Positions 1 through 37,963 of a stretch of 64,000 nucleotides of DNA are shown piece by piece. The notes under the pieces were generated by a model. It was given only the letters and a program-made list of their open reading frames with translations, did not search any database and was not told where the DNA came from. Every line of letters starts with the position of its first letter. Position 1 is the first letter of the stretch. The translations under genes and the position numbers were made by a program. Source of the stretch: Candidatus Rifleibacterium amylolyticum (GTDB taxonomy: Bacteria; Muiribacteriota; Ozemobacteria; Ozemobacterales; Ozemobacteraceae); contig JAACJG010000014.1 in the NCBI GenBank assembly GCA_009917695.1, forward strand, positions 50,959 to 114,958. Reading direction: 5' to 3'.

Positions 1-267
1 GATCTGTTGAACCGTTACCCGGCTGGCCTCTCAGGCGGCGAGGCGCGACGATGCCAGCTCGCACGCGTACTGGCAGGAAGTCCTTCCCTGTTACTGCTCG
101 ACGAACCTTTGTCCGGACAGGATGCCGTGACAGCAGGTAAAACAGCACAACTTCTGGCGAAGCTGCTCGCAGGCAAACAGGTGACGGCAATAGTTGTAAG
201 CCACGAAACCGCACTGTTTGAGGGTTTCGACTGGCAACAGCTTTATCTGCCAAACATCAACGGTTAG
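1..267 (+). CDS. ABC transporter ATP-binding protein, C-terminal fragment (5' end lies outside the window)
   Basis: ABC signature LSGGE, Walker B LLLDEP and an H-loop SHE; the frame is open from nt 1. Confidence 0.8.
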   Translation, partial: DLLNRYPAGLSGGEARRCQLARVLAGSPSLLLLDEPLSGQDAVTAGKTAQLLAKLLAGKQVTAIVVSHETALFEGFDWQQLYLPNING

Positions 268-2257
268 CCGCTCTTTTACAGATCCAGAGCGCCGTGAGAA
301 TACTGGCCAGAGGCAGCACCAGCACGGGGTTATCGGCAGCTGCCGAAATATGATTGATTATGTTCAGCAGCATCTGGTGTTCGTGATAGAGTCTGGTTCC
401 GACGTAAACTCCTGAACTGACCAATGTCAGAAACCGGAAAAAGCCACGGTCGGGGCCGGCGATAAAGGCAAAGAAAACCATGGCTGCGCCGGCGGCGCCG
501 GCCAGCAGAAAGTGCTGCTGTTCAAGGATTTTACCTTCGGTAAGTATTGCCGCCCTGACATTCTCGACCAGAAAGAAGAAGCCGAAGATAAACGAGACCC
601 AGCGCACCGAAGGCAACCGCTTGAAGTCCTCGGGCGAAGCTGGTTTGATCTGGCCAGGGGCATCATCTGGTTGCCGATCACTGCCCTTACTGTGTTCGGG
701 TTCTGGCGGTGGCTGATGCCGTTCCGGCGGCGCGGCCCGGTTACGGGCAGCCTGAACAGCTTTGGCCACAAAATCTTCATCGCTGTCTTCGGCAACAGAA
801 GGCGGCGGCGCCGGATGAGACAGAGGAGCCGGTCGTTTTGCCGAGGGGGGAGGCGGCGGTGGAGCTGGCACCGGATCTGACGGTCTGGCCGGCAATGGCG
901 CCGGACGTTTTGACGCAACAGCAGGTTTGGGAGCAGGTGGCGGCGGTGGCGCAACAGGTTTTGCCGGTGGTCTGGCAGCGGGCGGCGGCGACGCGGGTTT
1001 TGGCACTTGTATCGCCGGAAACTCGCCGGTTTTTTGCGCAGATTCAGGGAAACTGAACATCATGGTCGGCAGATTGCCGCTTTCAGGCCGAGGTTTTTGC
1101 GGGCCTTCGACAACTGTTATCACAACATCGGCAACCTTGATCTCATCACCCTGATAAATTGGAACCGGCCCCGATGGCTTTTCACCATTTACCCAGCTGC
1201 CGTTCGAACTGCCGAGATCTTCGAAGCAGATCTTATCGTCGCTCATAATAAAGTGCGCATGTTTGCGGCTGACCAGGCGACTCGCAAGAACCATCTGGCA
1301 ATCGCTACCACGCCCGATAATCCATGGAAACACTTTTACCAGAACAGGCTCAGCATCACCAGCAGAAAGCAGCAGATCGCGTTTGTATGCTGAAGCGGGC
1401 TGAGAATCAGGTCGGGCATCTCCAGATCGAGCAGCAGACTGCACCGCCTTGCCGACTAACCCGGCCGCAACCGCGGCCGCCGCACCTTTAAGCAGATTTC
1501 CGGCAGCATTGGCAGCTTTGCCGGCAAATTCTGAACCTGCATCAGGTGTGCTTTTCGGAAAGGGGAAAGCGCCCAGATCAACCGGCGCGCCACCTGACGA
1601 AGAACCACCTGAACTTCCGGACCCACCGGAAGGCGAGAATCCGCCAGATCCTGATGGCCCACCGGAAGAACCTGGATCATCATCGTCTTGAACAGAGCTG
1701 TTCACATCGGGCAAAGAGCTGACATCTGGCAGATCGATATCAATGAAATCGCCCGCAGGAACATAAGCTGGCAGACTGCTCTCGGGCGCAGCGCCGATCT
1801 TTTGCCATTCTGCTTTCAATTCTTGTATCGACTGCGAAATATCAGCAGGATCGACGACGCTGCCATCAGTTTTGACCAGACGATTCCTGACTGAGTCGGC
1901 GGTTACATCGACAACCTGCACGTGCAGGCCTTTTTCACTGCGATTGACATTCCAGGTGTTACCGGAAGTTCCGGTCAGCACAGCTGTCTGGAACATGTTG
2001 TTTTCGAGGGTAAAGACCATCTGATGTGTCGCAGAATACAGACTGAGGCTGCGATCGTCGAGCGAGCCATCCCAGTTGCCGGGAGATGCGTCAGGCGGCG
2101 CATTCTGAAATACTGCCATGGCGACTATTCCCGAACACAAAGCGACAGCTGCATCGGCGACCAGCTTTTCATCGCTGCCAAAATTATCTATTTGCGCAGC
2201 CAGCTGTTCGAGCGCAGGCGTAAAAGTAGTCAGATCGAGCGATTCTTTTACGGTCAT
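257..2257 (-). CDS. FHA-domain membrane protein (N-terminal domain, Gly/Ser linker, FHA, Pro-rich segment, C-terminal transmembrane segments)
   Basis: FHA core 'VFPWIIGRGSDCQMVLASRLVSRKHAHF...GSSNGSWVNGEK...GDEIKV'. GGAGG RBS 7 nt upstream of the ATG. Start overlaps the upstream gene's stop as ATGA. There are long poly-Pro and Gly/Ser low-complexity runs and 3-4 hydrophobic helices at the C-terminus. Confidence 0.75.
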   Translation of the reverse strand: MTVKESLDLTTFTPALEQLAAQIDNFGSDEKLVADAAVALCSGIVAMAVFQNAPPDASPGNWDGSLDDRSLSLYSATHQMVFTLENNMFQTAVLTGTSGNTWNVNRSEKGLHVQVVDVTADSVRNRLVKTDGSVVDPADISQSIQELKAEWQKIGAAPESSLPAYVPAGDFIDIDLPDVSSLPDVNSSVQDDDDPGSSGGPSGSGGFSPSGGSGSSGGSSSGGAPVDLGAFPFPKSTPDAGSEFAGKAANAAGNLLKGAAAAVAAGLVGKAVQSAARSGDARPDSQPASAYKRDLLLSAGDAEPVLVKVFPWIIGRGSDCQMVLASRLVSRKHAHFIMSDDKICFEDLGSSNGSWVNGEKPSGPVPIYQGDEIKVADVVITVVEGPQKPRPESGNLPTMMFSFPESAQKTGEFPAIQVPKPASPPPAARPPAKPVAPPPPPAPKPAVASKRPAPLPARPSDPVPAPPPPPPSAKRPAPLSHPAPPPSVAEDSDEDFVAKAVQAARNRAAPPERHQPPPEPEHSKGSDRQPDDAPGQIKPASPEDFKRLPSVRWVSFIFGFFFLVENVRAAILTEGKILEQQHFLLAGAAGAAMVFFAFIAGPDRGFFRFLTLVSSGVYVGTRLYHEHQMLLNIINHISAAADNPVLVLPLASILTALWICKRAANR

Positions 2258-5199
2258 GAACTGCCTCCGGTTTTACCGAAACAGATGTCGGTCACCAGCA
2301 GATCGTATTTGAGAACCAGACCGAACATGACATAGACGGCAATACCAACCTGAGGAATGTCAATAATTGCCGCCTTAAAGATATTAAAACCCTTGTCGAT
2401 CAGCGACATGGCCTGTATCGCTGGCCCTATCGCCGTTCCGCCCGAAAACACTATGCCGAGAAGAGCGACGCCGAGAGAGCCACAGGCAACCAGAGTGCTT
2501 GCAATATTGGTGATTTCATCGATTCTGGCAGTGGCGATTTCATAATCACCGTATCTGCCGCTGACATCGACAACCTGGCTGCTGAAATGATGACGTACCG
2601 GCTTCCAGTCACGCGCCAGCCATTGTTGAGTTGCGTATTTATAAACGTTGCCAACCACCAGGTTTGGCTGTCTGCCAAGCACCGCAAACTTCATCTTGAT
2701 ATCCTGCATATTGAGATCTTTTATCTCTTCACTGATCGGATGGCTGGTCATCTGGTTGACAAACTCGCCGATGAGCGCATCGAGAACCTTCTCGATGCCG
2801 TTGTCGGTTATTTCATCAGAAGTACAGGTCGCCTTGATGATCTTTTCGACCTCTGCCTTGACCTCTGCATTATGCTCACAAAGCCAGTCGACAACCCAGG
2901 CGGCAAAGCCCTTTGCCTTTTTGCACACCCAGCCGATAAAAGCCGATGCCAGACGGTAAATCAATTTGCCAAGGCGGGTAAAAAGGCTGGCAGCGAAATT
3001 CAGCACTGCCTGAAAAACTTCCTGCATGGCATTGAAAAATTTGGAAACCCAGTCTGAGGCGGCAGTCATAGCGTCATCGGCAGCGTTCTTGGCCCGGTTT
3101 GCCCACTCTACCAGTTCATCCCAGTGCTTGCTGGAACTGGCGAGCAATTCGCGAAATGCTGCAATCTTTGCGCTCAGAGCCGCGGCAAGATCGTCAACTA
3201 CCGCAACCAGATCATCGAGCATGCTGCCGATAGACTTGGCGATGCGGGCACCAAGATTGCCAAGCCCTTCGAGAAAGCCGTTGATTCCGGTTCTAATTCT
3301 TTTCAGCATGGGTGCAATGTGCTTTGTCGCCTTTTCGCCGAGAGAACCGACGAAATCACCCAGCCACGAAGCACCACGCGCAATCCAGCGACCAAATCTG
3401 GTTTTGGCCAGCCATTCGATCTTGGCACGACCCCAGCTGGAAATACCATGGCCCGCGGCTGTCAGATGTTTCCCGCCTTCGAGCAGATTGAGCATAATGC
3501 CGATGAGACTGCTCATCAATCCTTCGAAACGGGTTTTAACCAGATCTTCGTGTCCTTTGAAGCGTCTGAAAAATGTATCTGAGCCTTTTACCGCAACCAG
3601 CAGCAGTTGCACTCCCGCAATTGCCAGATCGAGATCTTCTTCTTTTTTTGCGGCCAGCTGAGTAGAGAAATGGTAACGATAATACTGCAGCTTCTTTTGA
3701 AAAGCCGCTGAATACAACTTGAGACGATCAGGTGTCAGTTCGGTTTCATAAGACTTTATACGTTCTTCCTGCTCCTGATCGAGCAGCATCAGAAAAACCT
3801 GTTTCTTTTCAGGATCAGTGGGCAACAATATTGCTTTTGCCTTCAATTCTGCCTTTTTAAAAGCCTCTTCGATTTCAGGCAGACTTATTTTCCACAGCCC
3901 CCTGGCTGTCGTCTTCTGCTGCGGCAACTGCACAGGCTCTTTACCAAGCGAAGGCGTGAATCTGGCGAGGGCAACCCCGAAAAGCTTACGCTTTTCGCCG
4001 GGCATCTCTACCGGCAGAATCAGATTGCCGCGAATTTCACCACCAGTGACCTGTTCTGGCAGGATTTCGAGTGACTCGATCGTGGTGTCCTGCTGCAATC
4101 CCTTCTTTTCAGCCAGACATGAAAGCGTAATTGCTGGCGCCACCGGAATGACAACCGTCTTTTCAAGCGGCACGGCCTTTTTGCCTTCGCCGAGCATGAG
4201 CTTGATTTCGTCGTATAACCTCTCTTTGGGCCTGTATGCAAGTTCAGCCGGAGAGGCATAGCGCAGCTCAACCACACCTTCGCCGTCAGTGCGGGCACTT
4301 TCGGTCAGAATGCTGCCAAGCGGTTTGGCCTGAGAAACTTTATCCCAGACGAACTGCACCGGCATGTTGGCAAGCGGGTCGCCGGTCGCTTCCTGTCGCA
4401 ATTTGATCCGGGCGGTAATCTCCTGACCAGGCTGTGCCGGTAATTCGGGCGAAAAAGCGACATCGACCGCAACCCGCGCCGGGCAGAGCACAAAGGGTAT
4501 TTCAAGCTTGCCGGTCGGGCGTTCTGATGGCTTAACCCGTGAAAAAGCCTTAACGACAAGCTTGCCGCGCAAAGGCTCTTTGAGTTCAGGCATGGTTCGA
4601 GCACTGCACCAGGTACTGACAGGTGGAATAATACCCTTGTCAAGTTCTGAACAGATCAGAACGTCTTCTTCAAACGATGATTCAAGCCTGAATTCGAAGT
4701 CTTCATCAGGTGCGCGAAAAACTTCACCGGTTGCGGCATCGACCTGCTCTACCCACACTGTCAGCTTGCACGTGCTCTGGCCGTCTGCCATCAGCCAGAT
4801 CTCAGAATCTTTCCAGCACTCGTCGGGAGAAACAGTATAACCCATCGCCTGCGCCGGTTCAGCGACATAGATGTCACATTCGGCATTGAGCGGTTCCAGT
4901 TGCGCAGAATCAGAAGCTACCGGCAGTGCTTTGATATAGACTCGCACCGGCTTGCTGAATTTATCGGGATTTTTGTAGCTGATAAATTGATCGGTTACTG
5001 CGACACTGGCCGCGACAATCTCGCCCTGATCCTGGAGTGTAAAAGACAGCCAGCCGGCCGGTTCACAGACAAATTCAGGGCTGTGAAAATCACAGGGGTT
5101 ATACTGACCATTCTGATCGCGCGCAAGCATGCGTACGCGAATCGCGGCCGGCACCCAGCGTTTACTGGCAGCATCGTATTCTATCGAAAAATCTGGCAT
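2254..5199 (-). CDS. large (981 aa) hypothetical protein with a beta-rich N-terminal region, a long amphipathic-helix region and a hydrophobic C-terminal tail
   Basis: Long ORF with a GGAGG RBS. It is translationally coupled to both neighbours. No signal peptide. The C-terminal ~70 aa contain two predicted transmembrane helices. I could not recall a family match. Confidence 0.7.
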   Translation of the reverse strand: MPDFSIEYDAASKRWVPAAIRVRMLARDQNGQYNPCDFHSPEFVCEPAGWLSFTLQDQGEIVAASVAVTDQFISYKNPDKFSKPVRVYIKALPVASDSAQLEPLNAECDIYVAEPAQAMGYTVSPDECWKDSEIWLMADGQSTCKLTVWVEQVDAATGEVFRAPDEDFEFRLESSFEEDVLICSELDKGIIPPVSTWCSARTMPELKEPLRGKLVVKAFSRVKPSERPTGKLEIPFVLCPARVAVDVAFSPELPAQPGQEITARIKLRQEATGDPLANMPVQFVWDKVSQAKPLGSILTESARTDGEGVVELRYASPAELAYRPKERLYDEIKLMLGEGKKAVPLEKTVVIPVAPAITLSCLAEKKGLQQDTTIESLEILPEQVTGGEIRGNLILPVEMPGEKRKLFGVALARFTPSLGKEPVQLPQQKTTARGLWKISLPEIEEAFKKAELKAKAILLPTDPEKKQVFLMLLDQEQEERIKSYETELTPDRLKLYSAAFQKKLQYYRYHFSTQLAAKKEEDLDLAIAGVQLLLVAVKGSDTFFRRFKGHEDLVKTRFEGLMSSLIGIMLNLLEGGKHLTAAGHGISSWGRAKIEWLAKTRFGRWIARGASWLGDFVGSLGEKATKHIAPMLKRIRTGINGFLEGLGNLGARIAKSIGSMLDDLVAVVDDLAAALSAKIAAFRELLASSSKHWDELVEWANRAKNAADDAMTAASDWVSKFFNAMQEVFQAVLNFAASLFTRLGKLIYRLASAFIGWVCKKAKGFAAWVVDWLCEHNAEVKAEVEKIIKATCTSDEITDNGIEKVLDALIGEFVNQMTSHPISEEIKDLNMQDIKMKFAVLGRQPNLVVGNVYKYATQQWLARDWKPVRHHFSSQVVDVSGRYGDYEIATARIDEITNIASTLVACGSLGVALLGIVFSGGTAIGPAIQAMSLIDKGFNIFKAAIIDIPQVGIAVYVMFGLVLKYDLLVTDICFGKTGGSS

Positions 5200-5200
5200 G

Positions 5201-6925
5201 TCAGAAAACCTCCAGGATATAGGCAGGGCCGCCGCCGGGCGAAACGGTCACCGTGGCTGTGCAGGTCTGGCCGCCACCTGAACCGGTAATGTAAATCATA
5301 GAAGGTTGCGGTATCGTATTGGCAGGAGTATCAGCCCGCTGTCCCACCAGACATGTCAGTCTGCACCCGCCCGTGGTCTGGCTCAGAGTCATCCAGCCTT
5401 CTCCCTGGCCGGCAAGTGTAATCGAAGCGTCAGCAGCCGGAACCAGTGGCCCGTTGTTTTCGCTCTTCCAGACAGCAACCAGAAGTTCAGCTGGCGCTTC
5501 GGCAGTTACAGCGAGATTGTAGCTGCTCACCTGAAGAACGTAAGTTGTCGTATTCACGGCAGCATCGGCGGCACCAGCTCCGATTGCCGCACCGATGGAA
5601 GGCGGCACGCCGGCTTTCATGAGATCGGCTGAGCCGCCGGCTTTAACCCACGAGGTTATCTGGGTAGTCAGTGGATCATTGGTATTTACGTTTTCCCACC
5701 AGCCCTTGTCGTGAGCAAAAAGTGTCTCTTCGCACAACATCAGCATAAAACCGGCAAAGGCGGTAAAGCTCAGAAATGAGGCAACGCGGCTGTTCACAGG
5801 CAAAACCTGACCGGTTTTGGTAAGCACCAGATAGAGCGTATAAAGAGCGAGACCCCAGCCAAAAGTCGGCCCATACTGCCAGGGTGAGCACGAAAACATA
5901 CCCGCCGAGATACCAAGAAATATGAGTTGCGACAGGCCAGCATAAGAGACCTGTTTGAGTGCCGGCTGACCAACCTGGCCGGCCAGCTGCATACCGAAAC
6001 GGGCCAGCCAGCTGCCGAGAGCCATTGGCAGAATCGAGCCAACCATGCCGAGGCTGATAAAGCTCAGCATGTTCTGTGACTGATGCGGCAATTTGTCACT
6101 CAACCAGCGCGAAAAGACGATGCCGATGGCCAGAGCGGCAATATTCAGCCCCAGGTGTGGCGTACAGGCGGCAGCAACCTGTTTTGGCATCGCAAATAGA
6201 CGCCTTATGCCATTTATCAGGCCATTGCTGCGAAACGCCCGCCACGCGCCAAGAACCATGGCACCGCCAAAAAACCAGCCAAAGGCGGCCGGCCATTCGT
6301 TGCCCTTGATTGCTATATGGCTGCCAACCTTGAAATCGCCGATAGTGTAATCAAGATACCAGGGCAACCCGCCGCCAAAAACAGTGCTGTTATAACTGCC
6401 AAGGCGCGAAAACATCATACTGATGTTACTGTTTTTGTCGAAGCCATCGTTGCCGACTGCTATTAAAAAAGTATGCAGAAGAAAGGCGATTACACCAAAT
6501 ATCAGCATTACATGCACACGTCGGAAGGTATTGCGTAAAACCTGTGTCAGGAGACTGCGCAGATCGAAACTGACAAAACCAGGCAATTCAGCCGGCGATT
6601 TGGGCTCTTTGCCAGTGTAAGACGGAGAAGATCGCACATCATACGATTCTTGCTGGCGCGGCTGATGGCCGGCGGCAGCATGCTTCTTTTCAGATGAAGC
6701 GGCATGCGATTCGGTTTCGAGATACTGACCGGCAGACGGCGGACCCCAGGCGCTGCCGTTCCAGATCAGCCATTTTCCGGTTTCTGCTGAAATCTGCCAC
6801 CAGTTGCCATCGCGATCCTGGCAGCGCAGCTCATCAACCTCGTGCACGAAACTGTCAGCATCGATCTGACCAGCTTTGAGTTCCTGGCGCAGGCGCACGT
6901 ATTTCTGTTCGAGTTTCTGCCGCAA
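5201..6925 (-). CDS. polytopic membrane protein with a cytoplasmic SHOCT-like/Trp-rich N-terminus and a C-terminal extracytoplasmic beta domain
   Basis: TTG start preceded by GAGAGG. N-terminus 'LEQKYVRLRQELKAGQIDADSF..DGNWWQISAETGKWLIWNGSAWG'. About 8 hydrophobic helices. Gly/Thr-rich C-terminal domain. Confidence 0.7.
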   Translation of the reverse strand: MRQKLEQKYVRLRQELKAGQIDADSFVHEVDELRCQDRDGNWWQISAETGKWLIWNGSAWGPPSAGQYLETESHAASSEKKHAAAGHQPRQQESYDVRSSPSYTGKEPKSPAELPGFVSFDLRSLLTQVLRNTFRRVHVMLIFGVIAFLLHTFLIAVGNDGFDKNSNISMMFSRLGSYNSTVFGGGLPWYLDYTIGDFKVGSHIAIKGNEWPAAFGWFFGGAMVLGAWRAFRSNGLINGIRRLFAMPKQVAAACTPHLGLNIAALAIGIVFSRWLSDKLPHQSQNMLSFISLGMVGSILPMALGSWLARFGMQLAGQVGQPALKQVSYAGLSQLIFLGISAGMFSCSPWQYGPTFGWGLALYTLYLVLTKTGQVLPVNSRVASFLSFTAFAGFMLMLCEETLFAHDKGWWENVNTNDPLTTQITSWVKAGGSADLMKAGVPPSIGAAIGAGAADAAVNTTTYVLQVSSYNLAVTAEAPAELLVAVWKSENNGPLVPAADASITLAGQGEGWMTLSQTTGGCRLTCLVGQRADTPANTIPQPSMIYITGSGGGQTCTATVTVSPGGGPAYILEVF

Positions 6926-6987
6926 TTCCTAAACCTCTCTGTTTATCGAAAAAATTATAAGCGCTGTAGATTCACAATACAATAGGC

Positions 6988-8052
6988 TCAACGCAAATTT
7001 GCCAATACCAAAGCATCGAGTCGGCACAATCCATATTCCTGACCTAGCCAGAGGTTGCCGTCTGGATCCTGTAACATGCACATGATTTCGTTACCAATCA
7101 GGCCATCTGATTCTCTAATAATTTTAAAACTGCCATCTTCGGAAAAGCGCGTCAAACCATCGAGTTCAGAGCCAATCCAGATAACACCATCGCGGTCTTC
7201 ACAGAATGAACGCCCTTTGTTACCGGCCAGACCATCGGCCTGACGCATTATCTTTGCCGTGCTGATATCGCCCTTTTTCCAGTCAGGAAAAAGGGTGACG
7301 CCGCCACGGTCAAAAAAGCCGGTACCAACCCACATTCTACCGCGCGAATCTTCGAAAAGCGCTGCTACATTGGCATGCGCCAGCAGATTGTCGGTTGTAT
7401 AAACTCTTTGGTTGTCATCTGACCAGTGCAACAGACCGCCATCAGGCGAAATATAGCTGCCGATCCAGATTCCGCCGGCTGAATCGGCCGTAATGGCGCG
7501 CACGCGTTCGCCCGGTAAACCATCGGCAACGCCATATTGCCGCCACTCCCCCGCAGGGGCGCGCACGGCCACACCCCGCCAGGTGCCGACCCACAATTCA
7601 CTCTGCTGCGACCAGCATAACGCCATGCTCTTTGGGTCAGGCAGAGCAGACGTGTGATCGTGCCAGACGTCATTGCGATCAAGACAGGCCAGACCCATCT
7701 CATGCGCGACCCAAAGGTTACCAGAAGGGTCAATCAGCAACGCCTCGATTCTGACCAGATCTACTGGCGGCGTGGCGATACCGGCACTGGTATCGAGTCC
7801 GCTGCGCCAGTTGAAACGTTTTAGACCAAACAGACCGCCAACCCAGAGATGGTCGTCGGCAAGCGCGAGCCCTCTTATCTGATCGCCCTGACAGAAATGC
7901 CGCCACCCTGGAGGCAGAACTCTCTTTGGCGGTGGCGCAGGCGAAAACGGCCAGAGCCACCAGGCCAGAAAAGCCATCAGCAGCCAGACCGGCAGATTTT
8001 TCCAGATGCCGGCCTCTTTTTTATCAGGTTGAATATACTGTTCTTCGATCAT
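6988..8052 (-). CDS. two-component-regulator-propeller (Reg_prop-like) repeat protein with an N-terminal transmembrane anchor
   Basis: Repeated 'G.W.GT..GL' beta-propeller blades. The N-terminus is hydrophobic. Confidence 0.6.
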   Translation of the reverse strand: MIEEQYIQPDKKEAGIWKNLPVWLLMAFLAWWLWPFSPAPPPKRVLPPGWRHFCQGDQIRGLALADDHLWVGGLFGLKRFNWRSGLDTSAGIATPPVDLVRIEALLIDPSGNLWVAHEMGLACLDRNDVWHDHTSALPDPKSMALCWSQQSELWVGTWRGVAVRAPAGEWRQYGVADGLPGERVRAITADSAGGIWIGSYISPDGGLLHWSDDNQRVYTTDNLLAHANVAALFEDSRGRMWVGTGFFDRGGVTLFPDWKKGDISTAKIMRQADGLAGNKGRSFCEDRDGVIWIGSELDGLTRFSEDGSFKIIRESDGLIGNEIMCMLQDPDGNLWLGQEYGLCRLDALVLANLR

Positions 8053-8249
8053 ATTGCGAGCCGCTCAAGTATATGCGATATCTCCTCACAGATAAAGTAA
8101 GCTGAAAATCAGCAATTTTAGTGCGATTGCCTGCTGACATAAAAGTGATGTAGACAAAATTTGTGGGCGGGACTAAAGTAGAGCACAGGTGCCACCGGTG
8201 AAAGCTATTCACCTTAATTTGGCTACCTGGATTGAAAGGGGAGCGAACA

Positions 8250-9785
8250 ATGAGAAAGACTTTTCTGGCGTTGGTTCTGGTTGTCGTTATGCTGCTGTCG
8301 TGTCAGGTCGCGCTTTATGCAAGTTACGGCCTGAATGTAATCGAGAACGACAGTATCGGCGTAATCTATTTTAATCTCGGCAAGGCTTACAATATTTTGC
8401 GCGACCAGGTAAAAAGCTTTGATAAAACCGCTGACGCGAATACCAGGCAACAGATTGAGCAGGTGCTCGGCACCCTGGGAGCCGAAAACCCTCTGGCCAG
8501 AGATCTTTCGGTCGCAAAAATCAATGAGGCTATCGAAAAATGGCATAACGACGGAGTTTTTATTCCGACCGGCGGCGTCTGGATTTCTGTATCGAAGGAT
8601 CTACAGCCCAAAGTCGTAATCGAAGCCAGCATCAAGCCAGATAAAATAGCTGAATTTCTCAAATCGGCACCCAATACTCAAGGCCTCGACTTTACTCCGA
8701 AAAACAACATCATCAGTTTCAATGCTCCGGGCATGGATTTGCCAATAGAGATCAACAGCGAACGCATCGTCATTGGAAAAGTGGCGGCTACAGCCGAAAA
8801 GCCTGGTGAAAACTGGCAGCCTTATTACAAGCGCGTTACTTCGCCCGATCAGCATCTGGCGCTCGAACTCGACGTACAGTCGATCATCGAAAGCGTTCTG
8901 ACTCTGCATCAGCAACGTTCAACCTCGACCAGCGAGAAGTCTTGCGCTGCCAACATGCGGGTAATGACCGCCGCCACTGAGATGTACAACATGGACAACC
9001 AGACGGCAATGTCAGAACTAAACGTTAACGAACTGGTCAAGGGACAGTATCTGAAAGAACCGATGAAATGCCCCAATGGCGGCACTTATTCATCACGTGG
9101 CGATCTTGCGAAAGAAGGCGAAATAGTCTGTTCTATTCACAACACGATCAATGATCTCAAAATCTACGATGGCCCGGCGCAGCCAGCTGCCAAAATCGAT
9201 GTAGCCAGCCAGCTGCCCGATCCACGCCTGCAGCATATCACGCGGGCCCGCATTTTTGCTGACACCGAAGGAATGATGATAGCTGTGGCGGTCAAAGATG
9301 AGCCGACCAGAAAACAGTTTCAGGAAATGCTGCAGCAGAATATCAAAATGCTTGAACAGCAGCTTTCGCAAAGCAAAGGCGACGTGCGCGTAGAAACCGT
9401 TAAAAAGCTGTTCGCTTCTCTCAGCCATATCGACCGCGCCCCATGGCTTGGAATTTCCTTTAAACAAAGCGAAAATGAGCAGATACTGGTTGGCACAGCC
9501 GTTGTCGGAGTTCTCGCGGCAATTGCCATACCAAACTTTCAGAAAGCCCGCATGCAGGCCCGCAAAAGTGCTTGTTTTGCGAACCAGCGCGTATTACTCG
9601 GCGGCACCGAAATGTATAACATGGACAATGAAAAAATGCTGCATAACCTGGATATACAGGCGCTTGTCGATGGACAGTATATCAAATCCGCGCCTGAATG
9701 TCCGGACGGAGGCACCTACAGTTCTGAGGGCGACCTGGCTGAAAACGGCAGAATTAAATGCAGTATCCACGGTTCAGTAGAATAG
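8250..9785 (+). CDS. secreted protein with two copies of a pilin-like Cys-containing repeat domain
   Basis: ATG at 8250 with an AAAGGGGAG RBS (the track start at 8232 is a TTG). Signal peptide MRKTFLALVLVVVML. Repeats 'C.AN.RV...TEMYNMDN....L....LV.GQY.K....CP.GGTYSS.GDLA..G.I.CSIH'. An internal 'VGVLAAIAIPNFQKARMQARKS' pilin-like helix is present. Confidence 0.7.
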   Translation: MRKTFLALVLVVVMLLSCQVALYASYGLNVIENDSIGVIYFNLGKAYNILRDQVKSFDKTADANTRQQIEQVLGTLGAENPLARDLSVAKINEAIEKWHNDGVFIPTGGVWISVSKDLQPKVVIEASIKPDKIAEFLKSAPNTQGLDFTPKNNIISFNAPGMDLPIEINSERIVIGKVAATAEKPGENWQPYYKRVTSPDQHLALELDVQSIIESVLTLHQQRSTSTSEKSCAANMRVMTAATEMYNMDNQTAMSELNVNELVKGQYLKEPMKCPNGGTYSSRGDLAKEGEIVCSIHNTINDLKIYDGPAQPAAKIDVASQLPDPRLQHITRARIFADTEGMMIAVAVKDEPTRKQFQEMLQQNIKMLEQQLSQSKGDVRVETVKKLFASLSHIDRAPWLGISFKQSENEQILVGTAVVGVLAAIAIPNFQKARMQARKSACFANQRVLLGGTEMYNMDNEKMLHNLDIQALVDGQYIKSAPECPDGGTYSSEGDLAENGRIKCSIHGSVE

Positions 9786-12735: not shown

Positions 12736-12842
12736 TTCAACAAGATAGCAGATTCGCAATCTGCTTGCAGTTTTTTTGTCGCTGGATCGGCAAATGTTCT
12801 GGTAAATTATACAGGATTTCATGCAAGACAGGAGAGTCAGAG

Positions 12843-13373
12843 ATGAAAGATGTCAGACCTGCCCTGCCGGGCCGCTGTTACTGGGTCGTTACCGACCGCT
12901 TTCTGGCCGGAAGTTTCCCCTATAATCCGGGAATCGACAATCCGCATGATTTCATGCGCAGTCTTCTCGATAACGGCATCGACGCATTTATCGACCTGAC
13001 CGAAGAAGATGAGCTCGTTCATTATCAGCCCGTTCTGGCAGAATTGACAGCAAAAGCGCTTATATACAGACGTTTCCCCATCGTCGATTACTCGGTGCCA
13101 ACACTGAGCGAAATGCAACAGCTGGTTGCGCATATAAATCAGCTGCTGGAAGAAGGCCGAAATATATATCTGCACTGTCGTGGCGGTATTGGGCGCACCG
13201 GCACCGTTGTCGGCTGCTGGTTGCGCAGCCAGGGGCATGATGGTGAGAGCGCTCTGGCTGAACTGGCAAACCTTTTCAGCGCAAGTAATGCCGCGCGGTT
13301 TTCCCGCAGCCCGGAAACCGACGAACAACGGGAATTCGTTAAAAGCTTTGTCAGCGCCGCGAGTAAACTTTGA
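12843..13373 (+). CDS. Cys-based (dual-specificity/tyrosine) protein phosphatase
   Basis: CX5R P-loop 'HCRGGIGRTG'. ATG at 12843 with an AGGAGAG RBS. Confidence 0.75.
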   Translation: MKDVRPALPGRCYWVVTDRFLAGSFPYNPGIDNPHDFMRSLLDNGIDAFIDLTEEDELVHYQPVLAELTAKALIYRRFPIVDYSVPTLSEMQQLVAHINQLLEEGRNIYLHCRGGIGRTGTVVGCWLRSQGHDGESALAELANLFSASNAARFSRSPETDEQREFVKSFVSAASKL

Positions 13374-23210: not shown

Positions 23211-23707
23211 CGAGTCAGCCACACACCGTGATGAGAAAGTTCGAAAAAGTCTGCGAAATCATCGAAAAACACAATAACGACTGTTCAAAGTTGATACCGA
23301 TCCTGCAGGCAGTCCAGGAAGAATACCGCTACCTGCCCGAAGACGTCATCTGCTATGTAGCGACCGCGCTCGGCATTCCCTCGTCGCAGGTTTACGGCGT
23401 CGCTACCTTCTACTCGCATTTCGCGCTCAAGCCCAAAGGCAAATACGTTATCAAGATCTGCGACGGCACCGCCTGCCACGTAAAAAAATCGATTCCCATT
23501 CTCGAAGCCCTGCTCAAAAAGCTCACGCTGACACCTGACAACATGACCACCAGCGACATGCTGTTCACTGTTGAAACCGTCTCTTGCCTTGGTGCCTGCG
23601 GCCTGGCACCGGTTCTGGTAATCAACGAAGAAGTTCATGGCCTGATGACACCCGAATCCACAGCCGCACTCATCGATCAGATCATCGCCCGGGAGGAAGC
23701 AAAATGA
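23207..23707 (+). CDS. NuoE-like [2Fe-2S] subunit of an NAD(P)-dependent [FeFe] hydrogenase
   Basis: 'ICDGTACHV...VSCLGACGLAP' thioredoxin-like 2Fe-2S. ATGA overlap with rex. AGGAGG RBS. Confidence 0.85.
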   Translation: MTSQPHTVMRKFEKVCEIIEKHNNDCSKLIPILQAVQEEYRYLPEDVICYVATALGIPSSQVYGVATFYSHFALKPKGKYVIKICDGTACHVKKSIPILEALLKKLTLTPDNMTTSDMLFTVETVSCLGACGLAPVLVINEEVHGLMTPESTAALIDQIIAREEAK

Positions 23708-25593
23708 ACAACGACAAACTCAACCTGAAACAGATCGCAGAACACTTTCGCAATAATTCGGAAGAGCGCCGCGTCATCGTCTGCGCCGGCACCGCCTGCG
23801 TTGCCAATGGAGCCCTTGCCGTCATCGATGCTCTTGTGAAAAAAATCACTTCGGCGGGTATCAATGTTAAGGTCGAAGCGCACGAAGAAGGCAAACGCGA
23901 CCTGCGCGTCTCGAAAAGCGGCTGCCACGGCTTCTGCCAGATGGGTCCGCTGGTTACGATAATGCCCGATAACATTCTCTACACCAGAGTCAATGCTGCT
24001 GACGCCGACGAAATCGTTGAGAAAACACTGATGAAGGGTGAGATCATCGATCGCCTGCTCTTCGTCGAACCGGCAAGCGGCAAACACGCGAAAGGCAGCG
24101 ACGAAATCACTTTTTACAATCGCCAGAAACGAACTGTACTCAGAGAATGCGGTCACATCGACCCTGAAGACATAGACGAATACATCGCTCATAATGGCTA
24201 TGAAGGCGCCAGAATCGCCTGTGTCGAGATGAAGCCGGAAACCGTATGCGAAGAAGTCATGACCGCCCTGCTGCGGGGAAGAGGCGGCGGTGGCTTTCCG
24301 ACCGGGCGCAAGTGGAAGCTGACGCTCGATCAGCCTGGTGCAAAAAAATATGTCATCTGTAACGCCGACGAAGGCGACCCTGGCGCTTTTATGGATAGAA
24401 GCGTCATGGAAGGCAATCCGCATTCAGTAATCGAAGGCATGATGATCGCCGCCCGCGCCATTGGCGCTGATGAAGGCGTCATTTACTGCCGCGCCGAATA
24501 CCCGCTGGCAGTAAAACGCATGCGCAAGGCCATCGAAGACGCCCGCAAGCTTGGAATTCTCGGCAAAAACATCTTCGCCAGCGGCTTCAACTTCGATGTC
24601 AACGTTATGGAAGGCGCCGGAGCCTTCGTCTGCGGCGAAGAAACTACCCTCATCGCTTCGGTAGAAGGCAAGCGCGGCATGCCAAGCCCCAAACCGCCTT
24701 TCCCGGCCGAAAGCGGTCTGTTCGGCAAACCTACCGTTATCAACAACGTCGAAACGCTGGCCTGTGTGCCGCTGATCATTCGTAATGGCGCGCAGTGGTT
24801 CAGGTCGCAGGGCACAGCCAAATCACCCGGCACCAAGACGTTCGCCCTGACCGGCCATGTCGCCAACACCGGCTTGATCGAAGTTCCGTTCGGAACGCCA
24901 TTGCGCGAGATCATCTTCAACATTGGCGGCGGTATCACCGACGACCGCAGCAAACCGATGCCTGATGGCTTCAAGGCCGTGCAGATCGGCGGGCCATCCG
25001 GTGGTTGTCTGATCGATGAACACCTCGATCTGCCGCTCGACTTTGATTCACTGCTCGACAAGGGCGCCATGGTTGGTTCCGGCGGGCTGGTGGTGATGAA
25101 CAAGAGCACCTGTATGGTCTCGATCGCCCGCTTCTTCATGCAGTTCACCCAAAACGAGTCATGCGGCAAGTGCGTGCTCTGCCGAGAAGGCACCCGCCAG
25201 ATGCTGAGCATGCTCGACGAGATAATGGCCGGCAACGCCGACGAAAGCACTCTGGTCAATCTCGAAAAACTGGCGCACGCAGTTGCACGCGGCTCGCTGT
25301 GCGGTCTCGGCAAAACGGCGCCAAACCCGGTTCTTTCGACTCTGCGCTATTTCAGAGCGGAATACGAAGCACACGTTTTTCAGAAGCGCTGCCCGGCCGG
25401 CCAGTGCAAGGCTCTGGCGACTCCTGAGATCAACCCGGAACTCTGCAAAGGCTGCACCATATGTGCCAAAAAGTGCCCGGTTGGCGCGATCAGCGGCGAA
25501 GTCAAAAAGCCGCACGTCATCGATATTGAAAAGTGTATCAAATGCGGAGCCTGTGCCGCCGCCTGCAAATTCAACGCTATCACGGGGGTGTGA
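23704..25593 (+). CDS. NuoF-like flavoprotein subunit (N-terminal 2Fe-2S, FMN/NAD(P)H-binding, C-terminal 2x[4Fe-4S])
   Basis: 'GRGGGGFPTGRKW', 'ESCGKCVLCREG' and two C-terminal CxxCxxCxxxCP motifs. Confidence 0.9.
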   Translation: MNNDKLNLKQIAEHFRNNSEERRVIVCAGTACVANGALAVIDALVKKITSAGINVKVEAHEEGKRDLRVSKSGCHGFCQMGPLVTIMPDNILYTRVNAADADEIVEKTLMKGEIIDRLLFVEPASGKHAKGSDEITFYNRQKRTVLRECGHIDPEDIDEYIAHNGYEGARIACVEMKPETVCEEVMTALLRGRGGGGFPTGRKWKLTLDQPGAKKYVICNADEGDPGAFMDRSVMEGNPHSVIEGMMIAARAIGADEGVIYCRAEYPLAVKRMRKAIEDARKLGILGKNIFASGFNFDVNVMEGAGAFVCGEETTLIASVEGKRGMPSPKPPFPAESGLFGKPTVINNVETLACVPLIIRNGAQWFRSQGTAKSPGTKTFALTGHVANTGLIEVPFGTPLREIIFNIGGGITDDRSKPMPDGFKAVQIGGPSGGCLIDEHLDLPLDFDSLLDKGAMVGSGGLVVMNKSTCMVSIARFFMQFTQNESCGKCVLCREGTRQMLSMLDEIMAGNADESTLVNLEKLAHAVARGSLCGLGKTAPNPVLSTLRYFRAEYEAHVFQKRCPAGQCKALATPEINPELCKGCTICAKKCPVGAISGEVKKPHVIDIEKCIKCGACAAACKFNAITGV

Positions 25594-25595
25594 CC

Positions 25596-27629
25596 ATGAA
25601 TGACATCGAAAAAAACACAATGATCATCAACGGCAACGAAGTCGAAATCGGCGATGAACGCAACCTGCTCGAGCTCATCAGAAAAACCGGCATCGAGATT
25701 CCGACCTTCTGTTATCACTCAGAACTCAGTATTTATGGGGCCTGTCGCCTCTGCCTCGTCGAAATCGAGGGGCGCGGCCTGCACGCTTCCTGCTCGATCA
25801 AACCGGCTCCCGGCATGGTCGTCAGAACCGCCACCGAAGAAATCAGAGAAATCCGCAAAATTTCGGTCGAACTGCTGCTCGCCAACCACAAGGTTGAGTG
25901 CCCGACCTGCCCGAAAAGCTCGACCTGCAAACTCGAAGACCTCGCGCGCCGGCTCGGCATCACCGAAGTGCGCTTCAAAAAGACCAATATCGACCAGCCC
26001 AAAGACTTCTCGTCTGACTCACTTATTCGCGACCCCAACAAATGCGTGCTGTGCGGCGACTGCGTGCGCTACTGCCGTGAAATTCAGGGAATCGGCGCCA
26101 TCGACTTCGCACATCGCGGCAAAAATACGGTTGTCTCACCAGCCTTTGGCAAGGAACTGGCCAAAGTAGAATGCGTCAACTGCGGTCAGTGCGCTGCTGT
26201 CTGCCCGGTCGGCGCCATCACCATCAAACCCGAAATCGACCAGGTTTTCAAGGTTCTCGATAATCGCAAAAAAATGGTTATCACCCAGATTGCACCGGCA
26301 GTGCGGGTTGCGCTCGGCGAAAAATTTGGCATGACTGCCGGCGACGTCATTACCGGCAAGATCACCGCCGCCCTCAAGCGCATGGGCTTCGCCAAAGTTT
26401 TCGATACCTCGTTCTCAGCTGACCTGACCGTTATCGAAGAAGGCACCGAGTTTTTGAACCGCTTTGCTAAAGGCGAAAAGCTGCCGCAGTTCACTTCCTG
26501 CTGCCCCGGCTGGGTTAAGTTCGCCGAACAGTATTTTCCTGAAATACTGCCGCGGCTCTCTTCCTGCAAATCACCACAGCAGATGTTCGGCTCGCTCGCA
26601 CGCGAAACATTGCCGGCTCTCTACGGCGTAAAACCTGAAGACCTTGTCATTGTTTCGATCATGCCCTGCACGGCTAAAAAGTTCGAGGCCCGCCGCCCTG
26701 AATTCGCACACGAAGGCCTGCGCGATGTCGACTTCGTTCTGACCACTCAGGAACTCAGCACAATGATCGAAGCCAGCGGCATACGATTCGCCGAACTCGA
26801 ACCTGAATCACTCGATCTGCCGCTCGGCTTCAAAACCGGCGCCGGCGTTATCTTCGGCGCCAGTGGCGGAGTTACCGAAGCAGTTCTGCGTTTCGCTGCT
26901 GAAAAGGTGACCGGCCGCAAGCTCGAAAACGTCGATTTCCATGCCGTTCGCGGTGACGCCGGTCTGCGCGAAGCCACCATCGACCTCGACGGCAAAACAG
27001 TGCGCCTGGCTGTAGTGCATGGTCTCAAAAATGCCCGCCGTATCGCCGAAGAAGTCAAGGCTGGCAGATGCAACTACGACATCATCGAAGTCATGGCCTG
27101 TCCGGGCGGCTGCGTCGGTGGCGCCGGTCAGCCGGTTGCCTTCAACAACGGAACCATTCGCAAGCGGGCCAAAGGCCTCTACGAAGCCGACAAGATGCTG
27201 CAGCTCCATAAATCCCAGGAAAATCCCTACGTCATCGAGACCTACGAAAAGATTCTCGGCGATGTCGGCGGCGCAAAAGCCCATCACCTGCTGCACACCC
27301 GCTATCAGTCGCGCCGACGCATCACCGAGAAAGGCATGCCCCTTCTCACCGGCGAAGCCGGCGACAAGCTGTCGATCAAGGTCTGCGTCGGCACCAACTG
27401 CTACGTCAAAGGCTCGCAGAATATCCTCAAAGCGCTCACCCGCGAGATCGAAAAGCGCGGCCTGAGCAATGAAGTCGATATTCAGGCGACCTTCTGCTTC
27501 GAAAAATGTGGAGAAGCGCCGAATGTGATGATCGGCGATCAGTTGATCAGCCGCTGCACCGTCGAAAAAGCCTGCGCCGCCCTCGACGCCGCACTCGGCA
27601 CCCGCCAGAAAGTCACTGTAACTGCTTAG
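25596..27629 (+). CDS. hydA: [FeFe]-hydrogenase catalytic subunit (HydA/HndD-type, with N-terminal ferredoxin domains and a C-terminal thioredoxin-like domain)
   Basis: H-cluster motifs L1 'TSCCPGW', L2 'MPCTAKKFE' and L3 'EVMACPGGCVGGAGQP'. Confidence 0.9.
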   Translation: MNDIEKNTMIINGNEVEIGDERNLLELIRKTGIEIPTFCYHSELSIYGACRLCLVEIEGRGLHASCSIKPAPGMVVRTATEEIREIRKISVELLLANHKVECPTCPKSSTCKLEDLARRLGITEVRFKKTNIDQPKDFSSDSLIRDPNKCVLCGDCVRYCREIQGIGAIDFAHRGKNTVVSPAFGKELAKVECVNCGQCAAVCPVGAITIKPEIDQVFKVLDNRKKMVITQIAPAVRVALGEKFGMTAGDVITGKITAALKRMGFAKVFDTSFSADLTVIEEGTEFLNRFAKGEKLPQFTSCCPGWVKFAEQYFPEILPRLSSCKSPQQMFGSLARETLPALYGVKPEDLVIVSIMPCTAKKFEARRPEFAHEGLRDVDFVLTTQELSTMIEASGIRFAELEPESLDLPLGFKTGAGVIFGASGGVTEAVLRFAAEKVTGRKLENVDFHAVRGDAGLREATIDLDGKTVRLAVVHGLKNARRIAEEVKAGRCNYDIIEVMACPGGCVGGAGQPVAFNNGTIRKRAKGLYEADKMLQLHKSQENPYVIETYEKILGDVGGAKAHHLLHTRYQSRRRITEKGMPLLTGEAGDKLSIKVCVGTNCYVKGSQNILKALTREIEKRGLSNEVDIQATFCFEKCGEAPNVMIGDQLISRCTVEKACAALDAALGTRQKVTVTA

Positions 27630-27711
27630 TTTGCTAATGTACTACCACTCTCTCTTTTGTCGCACGTTCGCTGCCGGGGCTGTTCGCACCTCTCCAGACA
27701 CAACCCCTCCT

Positions 27712-27741
27712 TCAAGGTCCCGGCAGCACGTGCCGACTTTT
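27712..27741 (+). terminator. candidate intrinsic terminator after hydA
   Basis: 'cggca-gcacg-tgccg' stem-loop followed by ACTTTTTTT. Confidence 0.45.
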
Positions 27742-27914
27742 TTTGAGATACAGAATCTCATTGGAGTAGAAAAAATTGGTATTAAATGTAATCACTTCTG
27801 TAAGGGCGCAGGCGGGTTTCTCATGAGCGGAAACTTCGAGCCAGGCAGCTTTGACGCAAAGCCATAGCTTAACAAAATCAGCCGCCGCCTGGGGAGAGTT
27901 GCAGCGAATGAGAT

Positions 27915-28058
27915 TCCGCCGAGAGCCCGAATACAGAAACGAAACAAGTAGCCAAATACAAGGTAAAATAATGATACAATTTCGCTAATGGTTTCAGAGG
28001 CAAACGCGGTAAAGCTGTAACATTGAGATCCTTAAATAATCCGCCGAGAGCCCGAATA
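27915..28058. repeat. two copies of a 19-nt direct repeat 'tccgccgagagcccgaata', 125 bp apart, in the hydA/downstream-gene intergenic region
   Basis: Exact 19/19 match at ~27915-27933 and ~28040-28058. Confidence 0.6.
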
Positions 28059-28121
28059 ACCAATGTTCACATCGAGCAAGGCGAAGGCTGGTTCTGATGA
28101 ATAAACCGGGGGGCGAAATGC

Positions 28122-28367
28122 ATGGCTAAGAAGTTCAAGATCACGATCTGTTCTGGCACAACCTGTTATGTGCTCGGGGGCGCGCACCTGATGATGCTCG
28201 CCGAATCGCTGCCCGCCGACCTCAAAGATCAGGTCGAAATAATCGATTCCAACTGCATCAAGGCCTGCCAGTTTGAAAACGCGCAACCGCCTTTCGTGCA
28301 AATCAACGACTATCTGATGTCACAGGCTTCTGTGGCCAAAGTCGTCGAATATCTGCGAAAACACTGA
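28122..28367 (+). CDS. small thioredoxin-like [2Fe-2S] ferredoxin (NuoE/HydC-like)
   Basis: 'ITICSGTTCYVLGG...DSNCIKACQ'. Confidence 0.7.
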   Translation: MAKKFKITICSGTTCYVLGGAHLMMLAESLPADLKDQVEIIDSNCIKACQFENAQPPFVQINDYLMSQASVAKVVEYLRKH

Positions 28368-28380
28368 GGCAAGACACAAC

Positions 28381-34151: not shown

Positions 34152-34193
34152 TGAACACCTCACTAAAAAACATAGGAAATATGCGAAGCGGCG

Positions 34194-34784: not shown

Positions 34785-34791
34785 AATGGCC

Positions 34792-35208: not shown

Positions 35209-35388
35209 AGATCCTCCGGTTGATTAATTGTAGTGAAGTCACGTTTATATTTTAAAGATTTTGACATTTTTCAATGCCTCCTGTAAAATATAAGTTGACA
35301 GGTGTCGATATATAGGTTAACATTCTTTCTTTTGTATGTCAACCCCCGGTGGAGGTTACAGTATTCATGCGCTTTATAAGGATTACAT

Positions 35389-36181: not shown

Positions 36182-36184
36182 CAA

Positions 36185-36655: not shown

Positions 36656-36664
36656 CTGTTTTGA

Positions 36665-37003: not shown

Positions 37004-37205
37004 AACTTCGCAATAGAGAGTGTTACCGACATTTACGGTTATTACATCGGGCTTGTCGGGATCTATCGGGATGATATCGCCTTCGTTCGGTGGCTCTTTG
37101 AAGCGTTCACCAGGAATGTAGATTTCTTTGAAAGTATCGGGCTCGTCTTCGGCGGCGTCGGGGTGACGGATCAGGGCGATAGCATTAGTTCATTTGCAGA
37201 TAATG

Positions 37206-37724: not shown

Positions 37725-37738
37725 AATAATATTATATT

Positions 37739-37946: not shown

Positions 37947-37963
37947 GTATGTAGAGGTGACTT

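Follow-up and report, generated by a model that had tools for sequence, protein, structure and literature searches.

The DNA analysed here, which we call the window, is a stretch of 64,000 nucleotides from Candidatus Rifleibacterium amylolyticum (contig JAACJG010000014.1, positions 50,959 to 114,958). Three consecutive minus-strand genes near its start, here named G1, G2 and G3 (Table 1), encode a transmembrane (TM) protein, a protein combining an array of immunoglobulin (Ig)-like domains with amphipathic helices, and an adaptor carrying an FHA domain. The data support their being a conserved, co-inherited membrane-associated module: gene order, coupling and full-length homology are kept in more than 15 loci, in Riflebacteria and in remote lineages. 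All three are genuine genes under strong purifying selection, with ratios of nonsynonymous to synonymous substitution rates (dN/dS) of 0.06–0.12. Against two relatives, these ratios are 0.07–0.09 for G1, 0.06–0.10 for G2 and 0.11–0.12 for G3, and 0.08–0.09 for the Reg_prop gene upstream (see below). Full-length homologues fall into 21 clusters for G1 and 18 for G2. A first-pass annotation, made from the letters alone, had placed three minus-strand genes here, and the open reading frames (ORFs), the homologues and dN/dS confirm them.

G2 and G3 overlap by 4 nt (ATGA), as annotated, with a GGAGG sequence 8 nt upstream. The 1-nt overlap proposed for G1 and G2 turned out to be a 1-nt spacer (TGA-c-ATG), also with a GGAGG upstream. 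A ribosome-binding site of this type had been assigned to each gene; it is present before G2 and G3, whereas the TTG start of G1 is preceded by a weaker GAGG/AGGA site. G1 orthologues share the start residue, at the MRQ position. A programmed frameshift joining G1 to G2 was ruled out because the spacer ranges from 1 to 36 nt among orthologues. At its 3′ end, G3 reaches 11 nt into the tail of a convergent ABC-ATPase gene. A scan for promoter and terminator consensus sequences gave counts no higher than chance. A lone perfect TATAAT, spotted by eye and uncalled by that scan, lies 29 nt ahead of the TTG of G1, within the 62 nt that separate this gene from the Reg_prop gene; the −35 element is poor, and the hexamer may be an internal promoter.

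G2 is the core protein of the module. It lacks a signal peptide and has the architecture first proposed for it, with a beta-rich N-terminal part, amphipathic helices and a two-helix tail, as borne out by a structural model, by periodicity and by the TM segments. In the AlphaFold2 (AF2) model, the first part forms approximately four tandem Ig-like domains. In Foldseek searches this array matches hydin/CFAP ASH arrays, protocadherins, SbsC and invasin (E 1e-9 to 1e-5), and one domain (residues 257–322) matches repeats of Big_1/MG2-containing proteins. The N-terminal strand of G2 is conserved as F-x-I-x-[YF]-D. The helical part (residues 475–895) shows a hydrophobic periodicity of 3.6–3.7 residues and is modelled as all helical, with low values of pLDDT (predicted local distance difference test) past residue 560. 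Its composition is apolipoprotein-, phasin- or tape-measure-like, and recurrent sub-threshold Pfam matches (Baculo_PEP_C, ApoLp-III, DUF948 and Phasin_2) are compositional only. The C-terminal hairpin is also kept in remote homologues. G2 has no match in Pfam, NCBIfam or PADLOC. Profile searches of the PDB with G1, G2 and the N-terminal domain of G3 gave nothing significant, the sole matches being designed helical bundles and a weak match of FtbJ to the G2 helices.

G1 as a whole protein has zero sequence matches in Pfam, NCBIfam, PADLOC or the PDB; no match was found for its TM core, and re-searching a set of 5.8 billion proteins with the G1 profile added nothing beyond the 21 clusters, which are all from Riflebacteria where an organism is named. 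Its AF2 model has a mean pLDDT of 60. The protein begins with a helical hairpin and a W-rich three-stranded element (GNWWQI..G.WL.WNG..W) made of conserved alignment columns. The first-pass annotation had seen the W-rich element correctly and had called the preceding helix SHOCT-like; even with an E limit of 10, no SHOCT family matched ten family members or the full-length G1 proteins, leaving a predicted two-helix hairpin. A WW hidden Markov model (HMM) did not match the N-terminal domain either. In the remote module L025, the W-rich domain is a separate gene (HMM E 1.8e-19). Residues 28–63 weakly resemble the tectonin-like blades of Toxoplasma TLAP2 (PDB 9ya3_H, E 8e-4); one such blade behind a helical hairpin might point to oligomerization into a propeller-like ring. 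A disordered S/T-rich linker (residues 67–115) follows the N-terminal domain. The approximately eight helices first counted in G1 resolve into seven clear TM helices and one marginal Gly/Ala-rich segment (residues 440–459, PPSIGAAIGAGAADAAV). The positive-inside rule is unambiguous, the inner loops carrying 2–5 lysines plus arginines and hardly any acidic residue, and the polar motifs HTFLIAVGNDG and PHQSQNMLSF are kept in the TM region.

The layout of G3 first proposed, an N-terminal domain followed by a Gly/Ser linker, an FHA domain, a Pro-rich region and C-terminal TM helices, was upheld. The N-terminal domain (N-domain), conserved in the orthologue alignment, belongs to no known family in the PDB, Pfam, NCBIfam or PADLOC. 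It abuts an acidic motif (SLPxYxP....DLPDIxxLPD, residues 161–185) that is invariant in Riflebacteria and could be a docking peptide for an Ig-like (MSP-type) domain. The Gly/Ala-rich helix of G3 is also present in remote adaptors. The FHA domain scores 60.1 bits against PF00498 (cut-off 20.7; E 2.9e-16), and the phosphothreonine (pThr)-binding residues G315-R316, S330-x-x-H333 and N352-G353 are invariant in all aligned orthologues. This is a genuine FHA domain with an intact predicted pThr-binding triad. In the Ozemobacter-type clade, a double zinc ribbon lies within the Pro-rich linker, whereas the clade of the window lacks it. The C-terminal membrane domain carries the motif LPSVRWVSF and a KRAA tail.

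The three genes co-occur in every related locus of sufficient length, a G3 orthologue following G2 in each. The first-pass annotation had named a failure to co-occur as grounds for refutation, and this outcome goes against such a refutation. Close homologues of G1 and G2 with a named source come from metagenome-assembled genomes of Candidatus Riflebacteria/Rifleibacteriota, except for one labelled Clostridiales; the nearest genome is HGW-Riflebacteria-2, with 93% identity in G2. The conserved unit is larger than three genes, as it includes the gene of a TM-anchored Reg_prop beta-propeller protein (PF07494, 106.5 bits against a cut-off of 20.4; four repeats). Its orthologue lies upstream of G1 in L001, L002, L004, L005, L007, L010, L011, L014, L017 and L023. 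Nine distinct full Riflebacteria loci, with G2 identity as low as 36%, keep the order Reg_prop–G1–G2–G3; one genome has an insertion of three genes between Reg_prop and G1. The Ozemobacter-type clade encodes an additional 97-residue FHA protein upstream of Reg_prop; the window, like the rest of its clade, has no such separate small FHA gene. FHA in G3 and Reg_prop in the upstream gene are the only memberships of curated families in this unit.

More distant relatives were sought with the G2 profile in an exhaustive HMMER search over 1.84 billion representative proteins. It gave 131 matches, about 40 of which are remote full-length G2-like proteins (approximately 950 residues, E 1e-52 to 1e-13) in at least 17 groups with less than 35% identity between them. 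The hairpin and several motifs are kept in these proteins at 19–25% identity to the window G2. The earlier statement that the partner proteins match nothing is thus right for curated libraries but not beyond them, as uncharacterised relatives exist. Seven remote loci were sampled (L019, L021, L023, L024, L025, L026 and L027), one of them supplied by a metagenome locus scan. From the NCBI names of neighbouring proteins, L019 appears to belong to Candidatus Eremiobacteraeota. L023, a deep relative at 25% identity, keeps the order Reg_prop–G1–G2–G3, and a beta-propeller gene also lies upstream in L019. The range of the module covers at least two named phyla and several other lineages, with GC contents from 30% to 68%.

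All seven remote loci encode a TM protein directly upstream of the G2-like gene, and in each this protein ends in a strand of the form [YF]-x-[LV]-x-[VL]-x. The terminal strands are AYILEVF in the window G1 and NYILELF, GYFVDVY, PYFIKLY, GYDLELY, EYVLEVL and GYELEVS elsewhere; in L025, the protein extends a little beyond the strand. An HMM of the G1 Ig domain matches the tail of the upstream protein in six of the seven loci (E 4e-30 to 5e-6), L021 being the exception. On the other side, the gene directly downstream carries a G3-type N-domain in L019, L021, L023, L024, L025 and L026 (hmmsearch E 3e-7 to 1.6e-4 after one iteration; hhalign probability 88%). In the seventh, L027, the downstream gene has a short N-terminal stretch, and no full N-domain, before the Gly/Ala helix.

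A feature of these downstream genes is how the position of the FHA domain is filled. L023 has an FHA domain, as in Riflebacteria, and L027 has a zinc ribbon with two FHA domains. The docking module is a zinc ribbon in L019, a zinc ribbon with an SH3-like stretch recognized by eye in L024, GYF_2 in L021, GYF_2 with a zinc ribbon in L025, and in L026 an SH3-like stretch, again recognized by eye and without Pfam confirmation. L026 repeats the entire layout of G3, with the N-domain, the Gly/Ala helix, the SH3-like stretch at the position of the FHA domain, Pro-rich linkers and a multi-TM tail. Judged by domain content, these adaptors show FHA to be one of several apparently interchangeable docking modules, with adaptor domains swapped across lineages. 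The first-pass annotation had proposed a phospho-dependent scaffold. The genuine FHA domain and the conserved membrane module bear out part of this proposal but phosphorylation as the core principle does not stand: because the slot is filled elsewhere by a zinc ribbon, GYF or SH3-like module, the core would not depend on phosphorylation, and a phospho-input would be lineage-specific. In L027 (4829–8021), the adaptor with a zinc ribbon and two FHA domains adjoins a convergent gene for a Ser/Thr kinase that combines a TM helix with an extracellular cyclophilin domain; this arrangement fits such a phospho-signalling input.

The beta domain at the end of G1 had been placed outside the cytoplasm, an assignment that now looks doubtful: comparative topology favours the cytoplasm, although it does not settle the matter. 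In L019, L021, L024 and L025, the Ig tail comes after a signal peptide and one TM helix, or after two TM helices, and basic residues directly follow the last helix before it. Because of these counts and of the positive-inside residues, the tail is read as cytoplasmic in all four. Their last helix is a Gly/Ala-rich segment and a clear TM helix, whereas the equivalent in G1 is marginal. The G1 Ig domain is probably cytoplasmic, beside the signal-peptide-free G2 and the cytoplasmic FHA domain.

The families encoded in the remainder of the window were scanned with Pfam, in ORFs of at least 200 residues. No Ser/Thr kinase and no family of type III, type VI or type VII secretion systems (T3SS, T6SS and T7SS) was found among them, as the first-pass annotation had also held, nor was a TolQ/ExbB-type motor family found among the window proteins scanned. 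The Cys-based phosphatase and the PP2C that had been noted are present, but neither is linked to the operon. The former is a DSP-type enzyme, its top Pfam models being Tc-R-P (polymorphic-toxin DSP-PTPase) and PTP-SAK, and its gene overlaps the start of an opposite-strand ORF of 237 residues. Its synteny extends no further than the two closest genomes, and because it is confined in this way to the closest clade the gene was rejected as an operon partner. The PP2C gene, rejected likewise, lies 25 kb away, where it overlaps a PAS-hydrogenase-like (sensory-hydrogenase-like) gene at the end of an [FeFe]-hydrogenase cluster. An ABC transporter (SBP_bac_11, a permease of about 500 residues and an ATPase of about 215 residues) is encoded convergently to G3 in most of the Riflebacteria loci, and the one beside L025 has 25–41% identity to it. 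As it is not adjacent to the module in L004, L023 and others, it was dropped as a part of the system; its presence near both the Riflebacteria modules and L025 may be coincidence. A pilin-like gene that encodes two ComGC/PilA-like segments and is oriented divergently to the Reg_prop gene is kept only in the clade of the window (L007, L010 and L011). Finally, one stretch with a GC content of 0.40–0.46, against about 0.50 elsewhere, may be acquired DNA, and a hybrid histidine kinase gene beside a cyclase gene is unrelated to the operon.

Table 1 Positions of the module, its domains and neighbouring features (window coordinates unless a locus is named)
Feature	Position	Strand	Description
G1	5201..6925	minus	574 residues, TTG start; polytopic inner-membrane protein (ORF list)
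G1, residues 1–66	6728..6925	minus	Predicted cytoplasmic helical hairpin and W-rich three-stranded beta element; AF2 pLDDT ~80
G1, residues 132–405	5711..6532	minus	Seven clear TM helices, N terminus inside
G1, residues 401–459	5549..5725	minus	Invariant loop AHDKGWWENVNxNDP...SW (predicted periplasmic), then marginal eighth TM segment
G1, residues 460–574	5204..5548	minus	Ig-like (PapD/MSP/ASH/SbsC-like) domain; invariant terminal strand Y-[IV]-L-E-V-F
G2	2254..5199	minus	981 residues; core protein (ORF list)
G2, residues 1–470	3790..5199	minus	About four tandem Ig-like domains; AF2 pLDDT 75–94
G2, residues 475–895	2515..3777	minus	Long amphipathic helices
G2, residues 896–981	2257..2514	minus	Hydrophobic hairpin, strong TM segments 899–917 and 951–969; conserved D-I-P-Q turn motif
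G3	257..2257	minus	666 residues; adaptor protein (ORF list)
G3, residues 1–170	1748..2257	minus	Conserved N-terminal domain
G3, residues 161–185	~1703..1777	minus	Acidic motif
G3, residues 171–276	1430..1747	minus	Invariant acidic motif (SLPxYxP...DLPD), Gly/Ser linker, Gly/Ala-rich helix
G3, residues 312–375	1133..1324	minus	FHA domain
G3, residues 385–545	623..1105	minus	Proline-rich disordered linker
G3, residues 546–666	260..622	minus	Membrane domain: three strong hydrophobic peaks and a weaker fourth
Reg_prop protein	6988..8052	minus	354-residue beta-propeller protein with N-terminal TM anchor; 62 nt from G1
TATAAT	6954..6959	minus	Possible internal promoter
ABC transporter	7..267; L001 15104–18383; L025 49–3127	plus (window)	ATPase gene in the window
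Pilin-like gene	8232..9785	plus	517 residues; internal repeat ending CP.GGTYSS.GDLA..G.I.CSIH (Cys-rich)
DSP-type Cys phosphatase	12765..13373	plus	
[FeFe]-hydrogenase cluster	23584..32728	plus	NuoF-like, HydA-like, two further Fe_hyd_lg_C genes (one with PAS), PP2C
PP2C	31580..32728	plus	
Low-GC stretch	34001..40000		Includes the 8xMP-family gene
8xMP-family gene	34194..34823		Membrane protein
Histidine kinase and cyclase genes	43309..47321	minus	Hybrid PAS histidine kinase (two receivers, Hpt) and receiver-adenylate/guanylate cyclase

The module was compared with described systems in which an FHA domain or a similar adaptor is tethered to the membrane, and it is a member of none of T3SS, T6SS, T7SS or the Glt system. 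Like it, T6SS TagH/Fha, T3SS SctD (YscD) and T7SS EssC have an FHA domain in the cytoplasm that is tethered to an assembly of the inner membrane. However, G3 scores 43.5 bits with TIGR03354 (TagH/Fha; cut-off 120.25), and no T6SS core gene was found in the window scan. The SctD-related profile Yop-YscD_cpl (PF16697) reaches 34.6 bits against 33.2, but spans only the FHA-like fold; the C terminus of G3 is multi-TM without a periplasmic domain, and no T3SS gene was found in the window scan. G1, G2 and G3 have no match to FtsK_SpoIIIE, which sets them apart from EssC/EccC.

In the Agl-Glt machinery of Myxococcus xanthus, GltG (FHA) and GltJ (zinc ribbon and GYF) are membrane-anchored and have long disordered or Pro-rich linkers; through their FHA, zinc-ribbon and GYF modules in the cytoplasm they dock a large scaffold there (PMC11761067, PMC11135422). 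Adaptor modules of these three types also occupy the variable slot of the G3 family, a likeness of working principle only. G3 scores 33.9 bits with NF033760 (GltG), far below the cut-off of 650, and lacks TonB_C; its N-domain and membrane tail are unrelated to the Glt adaptors. No Glt gene and no motor of the AglRQS kind (TolQ/ExbB-type) was found among the window proteins scanned. The scaffolds also differ, an Ig array with helices here and the TPR protein GltI there.

The mycobacterial FhaA and FhaB (FipA) and the cyanobacterial FraH are membrane FHA proteins that couple Ser/Thr-kinase signalling to the envelope, division or membrane organization. FraH consists of a double zinc ribbon, a Pro-rich region and an FHA domain, and the Ozemobacter-type G3 orthologues combine the same elements. 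The domain order differs, however; G3 has an additional N-domain and a multi-TM tail, and the window copy has no zinc ribbon. G3 scores 52.6 bits with NF049868 (FhaB/FipA; cut-off 125), and there is no pknA/B-pstP-rodA-pbpA context around it. Thus membership of G3 in TagH, SctD, EssC, GltG and FhaB failed in every case, and the literature yielded no described equivalent of the module.

At the level of folds, the best structural matches of the G1 tail and the G2 array are MSP/VAP, ASH arrays (hydin, CFAP65/74/47 and CEP192) and PapD-like chaperones. With 5–16% identity, this likeness does not imply family membership, Ig-like folds being ubiquitous. In eukaryotes, MSP and ASH domains serve in the cytosol as docking modules for peptides or proteins. 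PapD-like chaperones act by beta-strand complementation, to which the invariant last strand of G1 may be analogous.

We propose that Reg_prop, G1, G2 and G3 form one inner-membrane complex, the bulk of which faces the cytoplasm and which carries a swappable docking module. We put the probability of this reading at about one half. In this model, G2 would be the body of the platform, anchored by its C-terminal hairpin and presenting its Ig-like domains, while its amphipathic helices, approximately 400 residues in all, probably line the inner membrane face or form a bundle. G1 would be the transmembrane partner, with conserved periplasmic loops that face the envelope, possibly together with the TM-anchored propeller, and with the W-rich beta element and the MSP/PapD-like Ig domain as its cytoplasmic modules. 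The terminal strand of G1 (Y-x-L-E-V-F) would dock on the conserved N-terminal strand and first Ig domain of G2. The N-domain of G3 would bind G2 and its membrane tail would hold the adaptor at the membrane, where the FHA domain may recruit, or be recruited by, a pThr site produced by a Ser/Thr kinase whose gene lies elsewhere. Additional proline-motif contacts are suggested by the recurrence in the family of W-rich, GYF and SH3-like modules and of Pro-rich linkers. The output would be the assembly or positioning of an envelope-related process. Going further, it is conceivable, though somewhat less probable than the complex itself, that this is the Riflebacteria version of an undescribed, ancient, multi-phylum inner-membrane machine, with a receptor-like TM protein and with repeated swaps of the adaptor's docking module, representing a new class of membrane-organizing or trans-membrane signalling platform unrelated to two-component, secretion, division and gliding systems.

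The proposal of a single complex is based on the reality of the genes, their co-conservation, their domain content, the intact FHA domain and adaptor swapping, all of which have been shown. Several points weigh against it. The models of the helical half of G2 and of the TM core of G1 are of low confidence. The hydrophobicity of the segment before the G1 Ig domain is marginal in Riflebacteria (mean 1.0–1.1), and with only seven TM helices in G1 this domain would lie in the periplasm, apart from G2. For Ig arrays of the Big_1, MG2 and SbsC types, an extracellular location is usual. The kinase expected for an FHA-mediated input is missing from the scanned ORFs of the window. The flanking genes (ABC transporter, pilin-like and MFS) are inconsistently linked and indicate no process. 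In addition, a conserved operon of uncharacterised genes is unexceptional in itself because Riflebacteria carry hundreds of lineage-specific families of this kind.

The alternative that fares best, although we regard it as unlikely, is that the module stabilizes or remodels the membrane. Like apolipoproteins, phasins, YtxH/DUF948 or PspA, the G2 helices and hairpin would coat, bend or repair the cytoplasmic membrane, with G1 and the propeller sensing the state of the envelope and the FHA domain of G3 gating the response, an arrangement compatible with the platform model. The strong amphipathic periodicity of the helical region, the hairpin itself, the periplasmic elements of G1 and its Reg_prop partner, and the repeated sub-threshold matches, in which the Apolipoprotein family joins those listed above, all point this way. 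However, these similarities are compositional and lie under every curated cut-off, PspA/ESCRT-III and dynamin domains are absent, the context of a stress regulon is not visible, and the 470-residue Ig array is left unexplained.

Less probable still is a role in conflict or abortive infection, with G2 as a latent membrane-permeabilizing effector that G1 and G3 restrain and a signal read by the adaptor frees. Amphipathic helices followed by a colicin-like hydrophobic hairpin do resemble the layouts of pore-formers, and the adaptor domain differs between lineages. Genes for PIN and MazE toxin–antitoxin and AAA_15/AAA_21 proteins occur near the modules in L004, L007, L019 and L021; in several loci unrelated to each other, PIN, MazE and TumE genes lie no more than a few kilobases from the module, at 16887–17514 in L004, 930–2422 in L019 and 6876–8337 in L021. 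Against this, PADLOC-DB v2 holds no match to G1, G2, G3 or three neighbours (E ≤ 0.1), an NTPase or nuclease sensor is absent, and the modules in L023 and L025 sit among housekeeping genes. The locus also keeps a stable position between the same Riflebacteria neighbours, which, with full-length conservation and the low dN/dS, indicates vertical, core-like inheritance rather than the turnover of defence islands.

We give the same low credence to surface display or export, in which the G2 array and the G1 Ig domain would be extracytoplasmic and adhesin- or S-layer-like, reaching the surface by a non-classical route through G1, with the propeller as a direct partner. It could draw on the resemblance of the Ig arrays to SbsC, invasin/intimin, cadherins and MG2/Big_1 repeats, whose normal place is outside the cell, on the seven-helix count that would leave the G1 domain outside, and on the TM-anchored propeller encoded upstream. 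Yet neither G2 nor any remote homologue examined has a signal peptide, and the Ig tail reads as cytoplasmic in the four remote modules considered for topology. The G3 N-domain, co-conserved with G2, is fused to the strictly cytoplasmic FHA, zinc-ribbon and GYF modules, and an N-terminal passenger of 890 residues followed by a two-TM hairpin corresponds to no known export route. The idea that the three ORFs lie side by side without being related, or are artefacts of annotation, has only the lack of curated family matches in its favour; it is refuted by synteny in more than 15 loci and by purifying selection, and has practically no chance of being right.

Among phyla, Riflebacteria rank first in the density of novel families, with approximately 431 per genome and 26 synapomorphic families (PMC10849945). 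In a phylum so rich in lineage-specific gene families, sequence novelty alone is unsurprising (PMC10849945). The three core families have no relatives in Pfam, NCBIfam or the PDB. If the platform proposal is right, it would describe a widespread, previously undescribed protein machine kept together from Riflebacteria to Eremiobacterota and in several high-GC lineages. Its slot, which can be swapped between FHA, zinc-ribbon, GYF and SH3-like modules, would be a natural experiment in which different cytoplasmic inputs are plugged into one membrane platform. Ser/Thr phosphorylation would be one such input, a principle so far seen mainly in the focal-adhesion machine of Myxococcus. The docking of the terminal strand, the FHA triad and the conserved periplasmic loop would provide testable parts for phyla without cultured representatives.

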